Source of the DNA: a phage
Strand: one strand, 5' to 3'
Assembly (NCBI GenBank): GCA_022897995.1
Contig: GCA_022897995.1_4763.1
Length of the DNA stretch: 64,000 bases
The notes under the pieces: generated by a model
Database searches by the model: none
What the model saw: only the letters and a program-made list of their open reading frames with translations
Told to the model about the DNA's origin: nothing
Made by a program: the position numbers and the translations under genes
Part shown: one piece after another, positions 4,388-63,900 of the stretch
How the letters are laid out: each line of letters begins with the position of its first letter
Numbering within the stretch: the first letter of the stretch is position 1

Positions 4388-5629
4388 TTAAGCGTTGTCA
4401 ATCTCAAGCGGTGGCAGTTCGATTCCTAAAATGTAGGACATTTCTGAACGTCCAGCCATTTTACCCCAATCGTCACCCTTAATGACCTGGTGTTCTTCCT
4501 GATCAACTTTTGATGTATATGGGTTGACAGAGAGTGAATAACGATTCATAATAGCTACATGATGCTGGAAACTATTAGGGTCAATTACGCTCTTATACGC
4601 GCCAGCGCCATCGGCTTCTGTGTATGGGGAGTAGAACAGAGAACCTACACTCTCCATATCACCGATCATGTGCTTACAACCAACGAGCATATAATCGAAA
4701 GGTGTTGTCGTGTCTGCGTACACTTCCAGACCGCAACGTAGACGACCTTCGCTTAGAGCGTTGTCGGTTTCTTCCATCCATCCGGTGGATTGCAGGAGGC
4801 CAACCACGCGAGAAGACGCCAAAACGTATGTACCAGCAAAGGAGGAAGTACGCAACATTTGATTGCTCATTTCGCACGCGTAGCGGTAAAGTTCGCGAGC
4901 TTGTTTTGGTGCATCCTGAACGCTAACGAGAGAAAGTACGCCATCAGGGGTGATCCCTTTAATTTTATAGCGAGATGATACAGTGATCAACTTCTGAATA
5001 ATATCTTTGTTGATCTCTTCGGAAGCGACAGTAGCCAGAAGATCAATTACAGAGTTTTCCGAGTTGATTTGGCTTGCTTCAAGATCCTGCATTAATTCAG
5101 TGGTGAACGAGGTTTTCAGTTTACGAGAACCTACATTAACTTGCCACTTGTCAAACTGCATAGAGGTAGACGCAATTTCGGTGTTTTTATCTTCAAAGTA
5201 TTCTACCGATGCACAATCGCTATAGAAACGAATTTTGTTTGTCATTACGCCTTTAAAGATCGCAGCTTCTGGAGTTGCTGCATCTTCACCGACTGTACCA
5301 GCGGTCACAACTTCATATACAACATCGCCAGATTTGAACAATGCGCCTTCATCATAAGATTTTTCTTTTGAAAACTCTTCAATCTCTGTGCGATCACCAG
5401 CCGCGCCACCGTATGTTGCAGCAGTTCGGAAAGTCATCTGACCATCACGATTAAGATAACGTAGGCCGTACAATGCAGATACTGGTTGATCCGTTGGCTG
5501 AATTGCTACCAGATCAGAGAAAATCAGGTTGTTTACCGCGCGAGTTAATGATAATAGTTGCGGTCGCGCTGTCTGGTTAGCTACTGAGGAAGTAGATTCC
5601 CGCAACAGTTCAGTAAAAATATGAGTCAT
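4388..5629 (-). CDS. 24: capsid vertex protein gp24
   Basis: gp23 paralog by similarity, T4 position after gene 23; ATG at 5629 (MTHIFTELL..) chosen over the upstream ORF-track start; late promoter upstream. Confidence 0.85.
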   Translation of the reverse strand: MTHIFTELLRESTSSVANQTARPQLLSLTRAVNNLIFSDLVAIQPTDQPVSALYGLRYLNRDGQMTFRTAATYGGAAGDRTEIEEFSKEKSYDEGALFKSGDVVYEVVTAGTVGEDAATPEAAIFKGVMTNKIRFYSDCASVEYFEDKNTEIASTSMQFDKWQVNVGSRKLKTSFTTELMQDLEASQINSENSVIDLLATVASEEINKDIIQKLITVSSRYKIKGITPDGVLSLVSVQDAPKQARELYRYACEMSNQMLRTSSFAGTYVLASSRVVGLLQSTGWMEETDNALSEGRLRCGLEVYADTTTPFDYMLVGCKHMIGDMESVGSLFYSPYTEADGAGAYKSVIDPNSFQHHVAIMNRYSLSVNPYTSKVDQEEHQVIKGDDWGKMAGRSEMSYILGIELPPLEIDNA

Positions 5630-45772: not shown

Positions 45773-45801
45773 TTGACAACATGAAACGGGGGTAGTAAGA
45801 T
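45773..45801 (+). promoter_or_regulatory. sigma70-type early promoter with spacer hairpin (PeSL-like)
   Basis: TTGACA 45773-45778, TAAGAT 45796-45801; inverted repeat GGGGGTA..TACCCCC 45788-45807. Confidence 0.55.
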
Positions 45802-47582: not shown

Positions 47583-47611
47583 TTGACAGGGGAGGATAAC
47601 TCCCCTACAAT
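47583..47611 (+). promoter_or_regulatory. sigma70-type early promoter with spacer hairpin (PeSL-like)
   Basis: TTGACA 47583-47588, TACAAT 47606-47611; spacer inverted repeat GGGGAGGATAACTCCCC. Confidence 0.6.
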
Positions 47612-48297: not shown

Positions 48298-48326
48298 TTG
48301 ACACACGAGAGGGTGTATAGCATAAT
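48298..48326 (+). promoter_or_regulatory. sigma70-type early promoter (PeSL-like)
   Basis: TTGACA 48298-48303, 17-bp spacer, CATAAT 48321-48326. Confidence 0.65.
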
Positions 48327-48360
48327 GCACCCATCGAAACGAGAAGATATGGGAGTCAAA

Positions 48361-48504
48361 ATGCCAATTTTTAAATTACAAGCAATGGGTTGTATTGTTG
48401 GTTTGTTCAAAACAAGAGAGAAGCTAAACAATGCCATTGATAAAATCCTTAAAGATAACCCAGATGCAAAGTCTTCTATACAGGTTTGGATTGTCTGGGA
48501 TTGA
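48361..48504 (+). CDS. hypothetical small protein (47 aa)
   Basis: GGGAG RBS then ATG 48361 (ORF track starts 48232). Confidence 0.4.
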   Translation: MPIFKLQAMGCIVGLFKTREKLNNAIDKILKDNPDAKSSIQVWIVWD

Positions 48505-52232: not shown

Positions 52233-52649
52233 ATGGAATTTAAAGCAATTCAAATCATGAAAGGTGAGCATAAAGGTACTATTATCGGTGGATATTTCGC
52301 CCCTATGATTCTGGTATCCGAACCTAAAGCACTGATCGGCGCTAAAGTAATTGTTAGTAAAACTTTCGCAGAAGACCATGTGATCACCGCAGAAGACGTC
52401 GATTCGCTGGCACTGCACACAACTAGCTTCCGTCCTGTTATTGTAGATAATGGTGCTCCTGTTGTCGAGGGAGGCCAGCATTTGAATGTTAACGTATTGT
52501 TACGAGAAATGTTGCTGGACGCGGTTGAACATCCTGAGAAGTACCCGCAGCTTACAATTCGCGTTTCTGGTTACGCAGTGCGCTTCAATAGTCTGACTCC
52601 AGACCAGCAGCGTGACGTTATCGCGCGTACCTTTACCGAATCTCTCTAA
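52233..52649 (+). CDS. grcA: autonomous glycyl radical cofactor (GrcA/YfiD-like; T4 Y06I-like)
   Basis: 138 aa; C-terminal glycyl-radical signature ..[33 protein letters not shown]; AGAGGTG RBS. Confidence 0.75.
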
Positions 52650-52659
52650 TTTTTCATCA

Positions 52660-52688
52660 AGCCAATCCGAAAAGGGTTGGCTTTTTCG
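52660..52688 (+). terminator. intrinsic terminator
   Basis: AGCCAATCC-GAAAA-GGGTTGGCT hairpin plus T5. Confidence 0.65.
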
Positions 52689-52735
52689 TTTTATGATGAT
52701 ATGATGCAATCTCTTAATCAACTGAGGGTTTAATT

Positions 52736-53434
52736 ATGCATACAATGGTTAAAATGGTCTTCGGATCTCACTTATACGGCCTTGATACTGAAAATTCCGA
52801 TAAAGATTATCGAGGTATCTTTGTTCCGACTGCGAAAGAAATTATTTTAGGATCGATGAAAGAACACTATGACCAAAGCACTAGCGGTCAAGGTATCAAG
52901 AACACCAAAGACGATATTGATGTTAATATGTTCAGTCTAAAAAGGTTTATCAATCTGGCATGTAAAGGTGATATTGGCGCTATTGACATGGTGCACGCGC
53001 CTAGTAACATGTTGATTGAATCCTCCAGAGAATGGGAATACATCCGAACACATCGCGATAAATTCTATCATGTTGGTATGTGGGGTTGTTCTGGCTATCT
53101 CAAAAAGCAGGTAGCCAAATCTGAAAAGTATTTCAGTAACTGGAAAGATCTTTCTCATGCTCTGCGTGTTGGTTATCAGCTACTTGAAATCTATCAGACA
53201 GGTGATCTACAATTCCCGCTCGCGCGACGTTCTTCTATTTTAGCGTGTAAGTTAGGAGAAAGAACCTTTGATAATGTGCGGGAAGAATTGAAAGATCTCT
53301 ACGAGCGTGTTAAACTCGCGCGTGAAGAGGCAAAGAAAAACGGTATGCCGGAAGAACCAGATGTTGACTTTTGGAAAGATTTATTAGAATATATTCATCT
53401 GACCGTTGTTCTGGAACACTATACCCGTGGTTAG
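52736..53434 (+). CDS. predicted nucleotidyltransferase (Pol-beta superfamily)
   Basis: 232 aa; N-terminal NTase signature FGSHLYGLDTENSDKDYRG; GAGGG RBS. Confidence 0.55.
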   Translation: MHTMVKMVFGSHLYGLDTENSDKDYRGIFVPTAKEIILGSMKEHYDQSTSGQGIKNTKDDIDVNMFSLKRFINLACKGDIGAIDMVHAPSNMLIESSREWEYIRTHRDKFYHVGMWGCSGYLKKQVAKSEKYFSNWKDLSHALRVGYQLLEIYQTGDLQFPLARRSSILACKLGERTFDNVREELKDLYERVKLAREEAKKNGMPEEPDVDFWKDLLEYIHLTVVLEHYTRG

Positions 53435-53455
53435 TTAATATAGGAGATTAAGAAA

Positions 53456-53650
53456 ATGCAAGTTTATACCAATAGCAATAAAGGCAATGATATCACACCG
53501 GGAAAGATGTATGATTTTACCCCGGCACGAGACGACGAACATCCACCGACTATCGGGTATATTGAAGATGATGCGGGGTTTCGTATTACGATCCTTCTTG
53601 ATGGTGGATGTTCTCATCTTCGCGGTGATCGTTGGGAGTTAGTACCATGA
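53456..53650 (+). CDS. small protein, CSHL-motif paralog 1 (64 aa)
   Basis: AGGAG RBS; motif GYIEDDAGFRITILLDGGCSHLRGDRWELV shared with the next two ORFs. Confidence 0.5.
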   Translation: MQVYTNSNKGNDITPGKMYDFTPARDDEHPPTIGYIEDDAGFRITILLDGGCSHLRGDRWELVP

Positions 53651-53892
53651 TGTATGTGATGACACCTTATAGTAACCGCAAGTATATTACACCAAATGCA
53701 CTGTATGAATATACACCACATGAAAGATTTGCGAATAGTGGTTATATCCGTGATGATAAGGGACACCAGATTTTTATTTGTCTTAAAAATTGTGCACACT
53801 TAGACGGTCGAACATGGACACTGGTCGAAGAACCAAAACAACCTGAGAATAAAGGTCTTTGGAATGTGCTAAAAAAATTCTTGAAAAAGTAG
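53647..53892 (+). CDS. small protein, CSHL-motif paralog 2 (81 aa)
   Basis: ATG 53647 overlapping upstream stop (ATGA); motif GYIRDDKGHQIFICLKNCAHLDGRTWTLV. Confidence 0.5.
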   Translation: MMYVMTPYSNRKYITPNALYEYTPHERFANSGYIRDDKGHQIFICLKNCAHLDGRTWTLVEEPKQPENKGLWNVLKKFLKK

Positions 53893-53921
53893 TTGACAGC
53901 ATGAAACGGGGGTAGTAATAT
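53893..53921 (+). promoter_or_regulatory. sigma70-type early promoter with spacer hairpin (PeSL-like)
   Basis: TTGACA 53893-53898, TAATAT 53916-53921; inverted repeat GGGGGTAGTAATATACCCCC. Confidence 0.6.
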
Positions 53922-53949
53922 ACCCCCATCGAAACAAAGGAGTATTAAA

Positions 53950-54288
53950 ATGAGTGTTAAAGAAGTATTTGTTTATACTGACTATGACAGGTGCGCCTAT
54001 CTCACTGCTGGAAAACTTTACCGTTGTGAGATTATTCATGGTACGCTAGGTCGAATTATGTGCGATCCGATTACAAAATTGTGGAAAAACAATCCTAGTG
54101 AGCGAGAAACTATTATTAACCTAGATTCAGACGGTTGTTCACATTTGGACTATAGAAAATGGCATATCGTGACACATGATGCTTATGGTATTCATCTTGC
54201 TACTAAAGAATTGACTATTGACAAGTTCAAGTTTAAAGAAATCCCGTTTGTATACTGGCTTCGCAATTTGTTTAAGAAAGGAGAATAA
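53950..54288 (+). CDS. CSHL-motif paralog 3 with N-terminal extension (112 aa)
   Basis: AAGGAG RBS; motif ..IINLDSDGCSHLDYRKWHIV. Confidence 0.5.
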   Translation: MSVKEVFVYTDYDRCAYLTAGKLYRCEIIHGTLGRIMCDPITKLWKNNPSERETIINLDSDGCSHLDYRKWHIVTHDAYGIHLATKELTIDKFKFKEIPFVYWLRNLFKKGE

Positions 54289-54289
54289 A

Positions 54290-54712
54290 ATGGAAACAAT
54301 TAATGTACACGTTCGCCGTAGCAAGCTGCGCAGATTCTTCGAAGCTGAAATGCGTAAGACTAACGCACAAATCAAAGAAAAGTGCTTGAATAATGGTTAC
54401 GGTGAGTATATTTTCATTCGCTTTAGTCCGCATATGATCGACCGTCTAACCGACCGCCATATCGATGAACATAAGACAATGGAACTATTCAATAAGGTAG
54501 AAACTCGTTTGCCGGAGATATTCGACTTCCTGAAAATGGAAGACCGACCTAATCGATTAGAAATTACTGACGGTAACATGTGGATCGGGATGACAGTAGA
54601 TCTAATCGAAGACGGTAAACCGTATCACGGTCTATGCTGCCGAATGATTATAGAGAATCCAAAACGACTGGCGGGTAAAATGTCGGCTGTTGTTTTGAAA
54701 GTGGACCAATAA
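54290..54712 (+). CDS. hypothetical protein (140 aa)
   Basis: AGGAGAA RBS then ATG 54290 (ORF track starts 54218). Confidence 0.5.
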   Translation: METINVHVRRSKLRRFFEAEMRKTNAQIKEKCLNNGYGEYIFIRFSPHMIDRLTDRHIDEHKTMELFNKVETRLPEIFDFLKMEDRPNRLEITDGNMWIGMTVDLIEDGKPYHGLCCRMIIENPKRLAGKMSAVVLKVDQ

Positions 54713-62012: not shown

Positions 62013-62040
62013 TTGACACGGGGAGAGATCCCCGTATAAT
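62013..62040 (+). promoter_or_regulatory. sigma70-type early promoter with spacer hairpin (PeSL-like)
   Basis: TTGACA 62013-62018, TATAAT 62035-62040; spacer inverted repeat CGGGGAGAGATCCCCG. Confidence 0.65.
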
Positions 62041-63871: not shown

Positions 63872-63900
63872 TTGACAGGGGATCAGTGATCCCCTATACT
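63872..63900 (+). promoter_or_regulatory. sigma70-type early promoter with spacer hairpin (PeSL-like)
   Basis: TTGACA 63872-63877, TATACT 63895-63900; spacer inverted repeat GGGGATCAGTGATCCCC. Confidence 0.6.

Follow-up and report, generated by a model that had tools for sequence, protein, structure and literature searches.

Sequence comparison groups three small early-region genes of an RB49-like phage into one family with a predicted SH3-like fold

Sequence comparison confirmed that three consecutive small genes, here termed p1, p2, and p3, in the 64-kb stretch of phage DNA that we analyzed (the window) are true diverged paralogues of a single family. The family is phage-restricted and consists of a ~60-residue domain that falls into PHROGs 6261 and 15978, has no Pfam entry, and is predicted to fold as a small SH3-like β-barrel. 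Previously, the counterparts of all three genes were annotated as "hypothetical" throughout the databases; they now form one defined, ordinary, uncharacterized accessory gene family and no new kind of system. The best explanation as a whole, to which we assign a probability of about one half, is that p1, p2, and p3 are early, non-enzymatic SH3-like binding modules that play an accessory role and diverged by sub-functionalization.

Results

Organization of the p1–p2–p3 locus

The window derives from a Krischvirus, an RB49-like T-even coliphage; 59 Krischvirus genomes match the region at 95-96.5% identity. The trio lies in the hyperplastic early region, with nrdC.11 on one side and regB on the other (Table 1). 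A sequence-only reading of the window had described ORFs of 64, 81, and 112 aa in a phage early region. The ORFs were confirmed, as was the ATGA at 53647-53650 through which the start of p2 overlaps the stop of p1, and the early placement held, the region being hyperplastic and driven by sigma70 promoters in a T-even-type phage. Shine–Dalgarno (SD) sequences were found upstream of p1 (GGAG, 53443-53446), p2 (GGGAG, 53634-53638), and p3 (GGAG, 53939-53942). The p3 stop lies 1 nt upstream of the ATG of regB, a context gene outside the family that would follow p3 in a shared transcription unit. RNA-related genes nearby are the RlaP nucleotidyltransferase gene, regB, and vs (ValRS modifier). The same region also contains a GrcA-like glycyl-radical cofactor gene (52233-52649), and some database records carry glutaredoxin or thioredoxin labels for genes of the region.

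Table 1. Features of the p1–p2–p3 locus and its flanks (positions in the window)
Feature	Position	Strand	Description
Upstream unit probably driving p1 and p2	52659..53434	+	Terminator-like hairpin, promoter-like site, nrdC.11
Terminator-like hairpin	52659-52683	+	Part of the unit upstream of p1
Promoter-like site	52677-52705	+	Overlaps the terminator-like hairpin upstream of nrdC.11
nrdC.11	52736-53434	+	RlaP-type nucleotidyltransferase; upstream neighbor of p1
p1	53456..53650	+	64 aa, pI 4.6; equivalent of RB49 ORF097c
p2	53647..53892	+	81 aa, ATG start; equivalent of RB49 ORF096c
PeSL (promoter-early stem-loop) cassette	53893..53949	+	Promoter, hairpin, and SD upstream of p3
p3	53950..54288	+	112 aa; equivalent of RB49 ORF095c
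p3 3' end	54223..54289	+	Encodes the invariant tail KFKFKEIPFVYWLRNLFKKGE; doubles as the regB translation-initiation region (AAGGAGAATAAAATG)
regB	54290..54712	+	Endoribonuclease; PF10715 at 5.8e-48; annotations in relatives

The third gene had been proposed to possess its own hairpin-containing promoter, and such an element was indeed present. A -35 box (TTGACA, 53893-53898) and a -10 box (TAATAT, 53916-53921) are separated by a 17-nt spacer, and a GGGGGTA/TACCCCC hairpin (53908-53927) with a folding energy of -15.2 kcal/mol (z -2.5) overlaps the -10 box; AAAAAGTAG lies upstream of the promoter. The promoter pair, the AT-rich upstream sequence, the G-run/C-run stem-loop, and the SD followed by an ATG place the element in the PeSL class described for RB49 and phi1, where the hyperplastic region is reported as non-essential (Arbiol et al. 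2010, PMC2839356). The window holds a near-identical PeSL at 45773 and others at 47583, 62013, and 63872, and the site upstream of p3 is annotated as a promoter in phage GEC-3S.

Paralogy of the three proteins

The tandem, paralogous relationship claimed for the three ORFs withstood comparison with shuffled sequences. The Smith–Waterman score of p1 and p2 was 101, against 21.8+/-4.0 for the shuffles (z 19.9; 0/2000 as good), and phmmer detected the pair at E ~1e-8; p1 and p3 scored at z 7.9 (0/2000). The p2–p3 score (z 4.2, with 11/2000 shuffles as good) is weak alone, and the membership of p3 is settled by profile matches. p1 and p3 matched phrog_6261 (5e-29 and, over residues 3-76, 1e-36, respectively), p2 matched phrog_15978 (5e-58), and the cross-hits of the trio between these PHROGs were near 1e-6 (3e-7 and 2.5e-6). 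A family HMM built from 96 sequences recovered p2, p1, and p3 at E values of 1e-28, 2e-23, and 1e-18, respectively. No fourth copy was found, as nothing else in the window fell below E 0.03 with this HMM; a marginal 33-aa match at 48326-48424 (E 0.03), inside an unrelated ORF, was rejected. The motif ascribed to all three proteins stood in part: p3 contains C-S-H-L...W-x-(I/L)-V and also the N-terminal V-Y-T...T-x-G-K-x-Y part, but not G-Y-I-x-D-D-x-G.

A phage-restricted domain family

The C-S-H-L motif belongs to a wider family signature, T-x-G-K-x-Y ... DDxG ... C-[AS]-H-[LI] ... W-x-V. At E<=1e-3, an exhaustive profile search yielded 118 cluster representatives; removal of a single false positive left ~117 clusters. 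The rejected protein, P0020, was the top match (5033 aa, 42 matching stretches) because weak "TRTWHLVD" matches sum up across the repeats of this repetitive surface protein. Members are mostly 58-100 aa long and acidic (median pI 4.7) and come from phages or metagenomes. In p1 numbering, the conserved residues are T14, G16, K17, Y19, D38, D39, G41, C52, H54, L55, and W60. Among 96 diverse members, Y19 and W60 were invariant, T14, K17, and C52 were conserved in at least 90%, and C52 and H54 were present in 91% and 84%, respectively, several members having Ser instead of Cys; the alignment contained no conserved stretch of 7-10 columns. Distant members matched both PHROGs, which are filed without function. 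Two or three domains occur per polypeptide in P0027, P0030, and P0037, which fits a binding module.

The motif had also been said to correspond to no known domain, and the database searches bore this out. Neither p1–p3, nor 10 multidomain relatives, nor the 96 family members reached a cut-off in Pfam-A, NCBIfam, or PADLOC, the sole recurring sub-threshold match being DUF6501 (4/96 members, E 0.0017). A PDB sequence search with the family gave nothing above threshold, and matches to RNA polymerase subunit N and DPP4 (E 0.04-0.3) were dismissed as noise. Literature searches on PHROGs 6261 and 15978 found nothing, and a search on Krischvirus, anti-defense, and early genes yielded nothing on p1–p3.

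By tblastn, the only records that contained the family were those of Krischvirus (59) and Vibrio phages (15). A strict back-translated DNA pattern, too narrow for conclusions about prophages, located a single copy in the viral contig L041 and matched no bacterial genome. The L041 member lies near a probable terminase large subunit gene, as read from its translation, and that of Vibrio phage 355E48.1 adjoins rdgC and membrane genes.

Predicted fold and C-terminal tails

AlphaFold2 modeled p1 as a small β-barrel (pLDDT 87, pTM 0.73); the p3 model had a pLDDT of 77.5. The predicted structures of p1 and p3 show a small SH3-like fold, in which five strands form a barrel that can be superposed on SH3 domains and a 3-10 helix precedes the last of them; they place the C-x-H-L motif at the SH3 3-10 helix. 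Membership in a canonical SH3 family was not indicated, as no SH3 Pfam match was obtained at E<=1 for p1–p3 and none across the 96 members. The TxGKxY, DDxG, CAHL, and W elements of the family are not known as SH3 peptide-binding motifs.

The three proteins differ in what follows the barrel. p1 is a minimal stand-alone domain with no tail. In p2, residues 1-62 form the domain, which is followed by a linker and a C-terminal cationic amphipathic helix (LWNVLKKFLKK). In p3, the barrel domain (approximately residues 5-75) carries an 8-10 residue insertion and is followed by a helix (76-87) and a C-terminal amphipathic segment (FVYWLRNLFKK), which is predicted to be helical at residues 99-110. The hydrophobic moments (muH) of the p2 and p3 tails were 0.74 and 0.65, with net charges of +3 and +4, respectively; the FtsA membrane-targeting helix, computed in the same way, gave 0.78. 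Judged by sequence, both tails thus have the features of a putative membrane-targeting helix, being short, cationic, and C-terminal with a high muH. Orthologues have tails of the same type, as do unrelated members such as P0054 and P0084, and amphipathic tails can also mediate oligomerization or protein docking instead of membrane binding. The p3 3' end is nearly invariant in nucleotides, even across both p3 allele classes, and the near-invariance of the tail may partly reflect a nucleotide constraint from the regB leader rather than a protein constraint.

Selection, synteny, and allele classes

Gene-wide dN/dS values (~10 sequences) were 0.25 for p1, 0.22 for p2, and 0.13 for p3, compared with 0.03-0.10 for the neighbors. 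These values indicate that the genes are real and selectively maintained, being under purifying selection yet faster-evolving than their neighbors. Positive selection was rejected, and a sign of an arms race was absent, in that the gene-wide values were below 1. The N-domain of p3 occurs as two allele classes that are ~40% identical inside otherwise 90-100% identical DNA, and one class has C-V-Y-L or C-V-F-I instead of C-x-H-L. The trio had been called diversifying; this applies to its rate relative to the neighbors and to the two p3 allele classes, but not to the purifying dN/dS values or to the old gene order that has been kept.

All 59 Krischvirus records contained the trio, with the genes intact and their order unchanged. 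The order p1–p2–p3–regB was also kept in two more divergent relatives in which nrdC.11 is only 57% identical. Compared with the window, L022 and L008, which come from two runs of one study, showed identities of 59% for p1, 47% for p2, and 39% for p3. A further relative, L024, has a family member directly upstream of regB, and a more distant T4-like contig, L027, has one copy at this site, which points to expansion from one ancestral gene. Judged from these alignments, the triplication is old, and the comparisons point to a history in which a single copy upstream of regB was triplicated and tails were then acquired. A natural p1::p2 chimera in L010 shows that the copies still recombine. In T4, no family member was detected in the 138 kb scanned, which covered all early regions.

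Discussion

We propose that p1 and p2 are transcribed early together with nrdC.11, from the promoter-like site upstream of that gene, and that p3 is co-transcribed with regB from the PeSL. RegB has been described as cutting GGAG in T4 (PMC1702504). Since GGAG, the T4 target of RegB, is found in the SD sites of all three genes, their expression would probably be shut off through these sites after the early period. The proteins, which carry no catalytic signature, would act as non-enzymatic binding modules, their conserved residues (T14...W60) building the barrel core plus one conserved ligand face, to which a macromolecule of the host or the phage may bind in the course of takeover. By sub-functionalization, p1 would have become a free acidic domain, whereas in p2 and p3 the same domain would be tethered through the cationic amphipathic C-terminal helices, with the inner membrane or a partner protein as the simplest anchor. 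All three would have an accessory role, in host manipulation or counter-defense, and would serve neither essential replication nor structure.

A closer tie to RegB appears unlikely to us. In such a scheme, the p3-type or ancestral copy, co-transcribed and translationally coupled with regB, would be a cofactor, regulator, or neutralizer of RegB or an RNA binder acting on the same early mRNAs. The scheme draws on the family members that immediately precede regB in four lineages of decreasing relatedness, namely the window (1-nt gap), L024, L008/L009, and L027; on the PeSL promoter preceding the p3–regB pair in the first three of these; on the almost invariant p3 3' end, which is the regB leader; and on the RNA-related neighbors. 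The distribution argues against it, because regB occurs in 1137 phage records, a far larger set than the Krischvirus and Vibrio-phage records that contain the family. T4 has no family member in the 138 kb scanned, none adjoins regB in CC31, KP179, Pm5461, or Aeromonas phage 31, and the members in Vibrio phage 355E48.1 and L041 lie far from any regB, with no regB within ~4 kb of the Vibrio-phage members. On this distribution, an obligate linkage to regB or a toxin–antitoxin-like pair was rejected, and the adjacency to regB is explicable by inherited synteny of the vs.6–regB–vs.1–vs block.

Kinship with Gp54 of Escherichia phage Bas11 has a slim chance of being correct. This 66-aa, non-essential protein, whose own function is not established, directly activates the CapRel-SJ46 toxin–antitoxin defense as an alternative trigger (PDB 9AXB). 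As its distant relatives, p1–p3 would be small β-barrel early proteins acting on bacterial immunity or sensed by it, having diversified as effectors or decoys. They resemble Gp54 in size and context, and a local motif is matched (G-x-x-I-x-I-x-L...C-x-H-x-G-x-x-W-x-V). A profile–profile hhalign comparison gave P 0.0063 over 28 columns, and hmmsearch gave 4.1 bits with 76/5000 shuffles as good. However, the hhalign probability was 2.2% with the single sequence and 6.0% with profiles, global alignment failed, and the motif Cys is not conserved among Gp54 homologues. Homology was thus not established with a single sequence, shuffles (p ~0.015), and a profile from 8 homologues. We give equally little credence to the broader proposal of a much wider, hitherto unrecognized superfamily of ~60-residue phage β-barrel early proteins, with Gp54 as a member and the present family as its Straboviridae branch, that face immunity, either inhibiting defense sensors or being sensed by them. 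The trio would then comprise three sub-functionalized copies, one free and two helix-tethered, with the regB-adjacent copy in exchangeable allele classes; on this superfamily reading only, p3 would have such classes because host recognition pressure falls on the regB-adjacent copy.

In place of plain binding, the conserved Cys and His might indicate that a metal is bound or that the proteins act chemically, making these metal- or redox-dependent mini-proteins in which the C-x-H-L residues, possibly across a dimer, bind metal or react. The frequencies of C52 and H54, two residues apart, are unusual for purely structural positions, and the region contains redox-related genes (GrcA-like, glutaredoxin/thioredoxin labels). 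We nevertheless regard this as improbable, because a single Cys and a single His are insufficient alone for a site, conserved residues at the 3-10 helix, to which the models assign the motif, normally pack into the core, Ser replaces Cys in several members, and the whole p3 allele class with C-V-Y-L or C-V-F-I is maintained in otherwise identical phages. The view that the genes are functionless cargo, ORFans shuffled by PeSL-mediated recombination and persisting without useful function, would suit a hyperplastic region that is rich in PeSLs and ORFans and described as non-essential (PMC2839356) and the uniformly "hypothetical" annotation, but it is very improbable and already largely refuted by the dN/dS values, by the intact order in the Krischvirus records and the divergent relatives, and by a signature conserved across ~117 clusters.

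Most T-even-type early genes are still ORFans, and the present analysis places three "hypothetical proteins" of all sequenced Krischviruses in one domain family for which a signature, a fold class, and a history can now be given. Experiments can draw on the natural p1::p2 chimera, on both p3 allele classes, and on the tailed and tail-less versions of the same domain. If a binding partner is found, a function could be assigned to ~117 clusters of phage proteins, and the part that Gp54-like triggers play for the phage might be explained.

Comparison with known systems

The p3 promoter resembles the PeSLs of RB49 and phi1 in its strong sigma70 promoter, the GGGG...CCCC stem-loop over the -10 box, the AT-rich upstream sequence, and the SD, as well as in its intergenic position upstream of an ORFan in the hyperplastic region. 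It differs in the borders of the p3 allele exchange: the PeSL forms the left border, and the right one is tail-coding sequence conserved within the gene instead of another PeSL; ORF095-097 and regB are absent from the PeSL paper (PMC2839356).

T4 vs.3, vs.4, and vs.5 occupy the same slot (vs.6 to regB) as the trio and are likewise three genes of similar sizes (58, 88, and 92 aa). They were rejected as orthologues, having no similarity to the family HMM, and their translations, judged by eye, look helical or coiled-coil rather than β-barrel.

The p2 and p3 tails resemble the MinD and FtsA targeting helices in being C-terminal, 11-12 residues long, and cationic, with hydrophobic moments in the range computed for the FtsA helix; the likeness is one of analogy alone, not homology.

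Compared with SH3 and SH3-like barrels in general, the family is phage-restricted and stand-alone and has no SH3-type Pfam match. Gp54 of Bas11, which comes from the Drexlerviridae rather than the Straboviridae, has six strands, compared with the five strands plus a 3-10 helix predicted for the family; it is the sole studied structural look-alike of p1, p2, and p3.

Three tandem ORFs constitute one protein family

The three small ORFs, p1, p2 and p3, were found in the window at the lengths given by the sequence-only reading, together with the ATGA overlap of p1 and p2 and the hairpin-containing promoter ahead of p3. Their proposed paralogy also held: in Smith–Waterman comparisons, p1 and p2 scored 101 against 21.8 ± 4.0 for shuffled controls (z 19.9), far above chance, p1 and p3 were clearly related (z 7.9; 0 of 2000 shuffles), and the p2–p3 signal was weak (z 4.2; 11 of 2000). 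Moreover, phrog_6261 was matched by p1 (5e-29) and p3 (1e-36) and phrog_15978 by p2 (5e-58), with reciprocal cross-hits between the two PHROGs, and a 96-member family HMM run over the 64-kb window detected exactly these three ORFs (E 1e-28, 2e-23 and 1e-18; next match 0.03). The PHROG and HMM matches settle the paralogy. The motif described as common to all three is only partly so, since p3 lacks the G-Y-I-x-D-D-x-G segment of p1 and p2 and carries an insertion instead.

Features of the p1–p3 locus and PeSL-type elements (TTGACA, G-run/C-run hairpin, -10 box) in the window
Feature	Coordinates	Strand	Description
PeSL-type element	45773-45801	+	
PeSL-type element	47583-47611	+	
vs.6	52233-52649	+	GrcA-like glycyl-radical protein
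Terminator/promoter composite	52659-52705		ahead of nrdC.11
nrdC.11	52736-53434	+	RlaP-type nucleotidyltransferase
p1	53456-53650	+	64 aa
p1/p2 overlap	53647-53650	+	ATGA
p2	53647-53892	+	81 aa
PeSL-type element	53893-53921	+	ahead of p3
p3	53950-54288	+	112 aa
regB	54290-54712	+	
PeSL-type element	62013-62040	+	
PeSL-type element	63872-63900	+	

Genomic context and expression signals

Positions 53300-54400 of the window were 95–96.5% identical to 59 GenBank Krischvirus genomes (RB49, phi1, JSE, GEC-3S and others); PeSL copies probably account for the extra match places per record. Locally, the genes run on the + strand in the order vs.8, a 41-aa ORF, vs.6, nrdC.11, p1, p2, p3, regB, vs.1, vs and tk.4. 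The RB49 counterparts of p1, p2 and p3 are ORF097c, ORF096c and ORF095c, and the three genes are labelled "hypothetical" in nearly all Krischvirus records. Several records name the p3 orthologue "endoribonuclease" or "RegB" (MK962753, JK32; MW748999, Skers; MT478991, 011D4; MK327932, G2248). Since p3 showed no similarity to RegB and PF10715 matched the next gene only, this label is probably a spill-over of the neighbour's annotation. In several relatives, an HNH-type homing endonuclease gene lies between vs.6 and nrdC.11 (L004 4247-4774, L015 1-369 and L020 1-364); the same slot in the window (52650-52735), RB49 and GEC-3S holds a terminator/promoter spacer only, without an HNH gene.

The intergenic element ahead of p3 fitted the published promoter-early stem-loop (PeSL) of RB49/phi1, and the copy at 45773 was nearly identical to it. 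Such elements are reported to act both as strong early promoters and as terminators, and to bring about modular shuffling within hyperplastic regions (PMC2839356). p1 and p2, which lie behind nrdC.11, lack a dedicated promoter. Ahead of nrdC.11, a terminator-like hairpin (AAGCCAATCC...GGTTGGCTT) is followed by a T-run, and its 3' arm is shared with a promoter-like site (-35 TTGGCT, 17 nt, TATGAT, extended TG) at the -35. The two together form another PeSL-type composite of terminator and promoter. GEC-3S and G2494 annotate its counterpart as a terminator only.

GGAG, the tetranucleotide cut by T4 RegB in early mRNAs according to PMC1702504, was present in the Shine-Dalgarno region of all four of p1, p2, p3 and regB, which would be expressed early and then shut off by RegB. 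The regB Shine-Dalgarno (window 54270-54292) is polymorphic among Krischviruses, with GGAG or GGAT: it is AAGGAGAATAAAATG in the window, L004, L010, Brandy, SSG23 and JK32, and AAGGATAATAAAATG in RB49, GEC-3S, JSE, G2494 and kvi. With T in place of G, the regB leader loses the GGAG at which RegB would cut its own message, and p3 is 111 instead of 112 aa long.

Distribution and history of the family

The order p1–p2–p3 was unchanged in two more divergent relatives. In L024, protein identity to the window was 75% for p1, 56% for p2 and 41% for p3 (neighbours 79–93%); in L022 plus L008, where the full trio is pieced together from two contigs belonging to different runs of the same study, it was 59%, 47% and 39% (nrdC.11 57%, regB 87%). 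A distant 152.8-kb T4-like contig (L027) encoded two members: one of 61 aa immediately ahead of regB, and another, more divergent (5060-5392; E 7.5e-11), two genes downstream of it. This conserved adjacency would suit a RegB- or RNA-linked role for the family, a reading that the wider distribution contradicts: no member was found beside regB in CC31, KP179, Pm5461 or Aeromonas phage 31, nor in the 138 of 169 kb of T4 scanned, which covered all early regions, and single copies occurred in unrelated contexts in Vibrio phage 355E48.1 and one IMG/VR contig. The simplest history starts from one copy upstream of regB that gave rise to three in the Krischvirus lineage, tails being acquired by p2 and p3.

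Family signature and predicted fold

Word-indexed searches recovered close relatives only, and a profile search run exhaustively over 1.84 billion cluster representatives gave 118 matches at E<=1e-3. The top match, P0020 (E 2.5e-59), was rejected as a false positive: it is a 5033-aa repetitive surface-type protein whose score summed 42 weak matches to ~100-aa repeats with TRTWHLVDNC, a warning for profile searches using short beta-rich domains. The remaining matches were mostly stand-alone proteins of 58–100 aa (median pI of short members 4.7). Some were longer, with two or three domains per polypeptide (P0027, P0030, P0037) or an unrelated C-terminal region fused to the domain. In P0045, P0070, P0088 and P0125, the fused region carries a conserved TPKTWGEMTDAEKGALLLA...YRIKPEP and partially matches phrog_13152 (unknown function), another uncharacterised phage domain.

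The family consensus was M-K-V-K-T-D-Y-x-G-C-x-Y-I-T-A-G-K-x-Y-E-V ... G-x-I-x-D-D-x-G-x-x-x-x-I ... C-A-H-L-x-G-x-x-W-E-V-V-E. In a 96-sequence alignment (p1 numbering), Y19 and W60 were invariant, T14, K17 and C52 each occurred in 90% or more of the sequences, and D39 (88%), H54 (84%), G41 (84%) and L55 (79%) followed; C-x-H-[LIVM] was carried by 72 of the 96. This conservation makes the "C-S-H-L" first noticed in the window the family signature. It corresponds to no curated domain: sequence comparisons with Pfam, NCBIfam, PADLOC and PDB returned no relative of the family. Every matching PHROG is filed under unknown function, and a literature search on the PHROG ids found no paper mentioning them.

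AlphaFold2 modelled p1 confidently from the family alignment (pLDDT 87, pTM 0.73), and the p3 model comprised a confident barrel (residues 5–75) followed by helices 76–87 and 99–110 (mean pLDDT 77.5). Another reading is that the trio are true relatives of Gp54 of Bas11, a dispensable 66-aa protein without known function that directly activates CapRel-SJ46 defence (PMC11578894), and face bacterial immunity. Comparison by hhalign gave the family profile a probability of 2% against Gp54; against a profile built from 8 homologues of Gp54 the value was 6% (P 0.0063 across 28 columns). The 4.1 bits of the family HMM on Gp54 were equalled by 76 of 5000 shuffles. These results leave the likeness as a lead, not membership.

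Recombination and p3 alleles

A precise in-frame p1::p2 chimera of 83 aa (P0014) was found in a metagenome scaffold (ERZ16268176; L010 45-296), produced by a crossover in the shared G-Y-I-x-D-D codons that deleted what had separated the two copies of the motif; the DNA upstream of the chimera is unlike the window's nrdC.11 end. The p3 N-domain occurred as a second allele class, 39–41% identical to that of the window (L004 6001-6312, L024 4299-4601), and DNA identity fell to 38–60% only from the PeSL (~53898) to ~54247, with flanks at 90–100%. This class has C-V-Y-L or C-V-F-I in place of C-S-H-L. A Cys/His metal site is a further rival explanation of the proteins. The C-terminal 18–21 residues were unchanged between classes, the last 21 being KFKFKEIPFVYWLRNLFKKGE, and their coding DNA, which overlaps the regB translation-initiation region, was nearly invariant, including synonymous sites.

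Selection and proposed mechanism

Across 10–11 Krischvirus sequences, dN/dS (Nei–Gojobori) was 0.25 for p1, 0.22 for p2 and 0.13 for p3, and 0.03, 0.04, 0.10 and 0.03 for nrdC.11, regB, vs.1 and vs. p1, p2 and p3 are real genes under purifying, more relaxed selection, which contradicts their being functionless cargo.

Together, these results make it very probable that the trio is a paralogous, selected, SH3-like phage family. In the favoured mechanism, its members would be small non-enzymatic binding modules made early in infection and sharing a conserved ligand face. They would have sub-functionalised, one copy being free and acidic and the other two tethered, and their role would be accessory, in host manipulation or counter-defence. 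This adaptor-plus-tether mechanism is tentative, and we put the overall explanation at about 0.5. Already known were the genes as database hypothetical proteins, the family as two PHROGs without function, and the promoter element; new are the unity of the three genes, the signature and fold class of their family, the p2 and p3 tails, the p3 allele classes, the natural p1::p2 chimera and the history traced from one ancestor close to regB.

The tails of p2 (LWNVLKKFLKK) and p3 (FVYWLRNLFKK) are C-terminal cationic amphipathic helices that may tether these proteins to the membrane or a partner; equivalents occurred in the orthologues P0022, P0026 and P0025 and the unrelated members P0054 and P0084. 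In kind, the trio falls among the accessory ORFans with small beta-barrels that occur in the hyperplastic regions of phages. Its p2 and p3 tails have hydrophobic moments of 0.74 and 0.65 (p1 nowhere exceeds 0.47), against 0.78 for the membrane-targeting helix of FtsA computed likewise.
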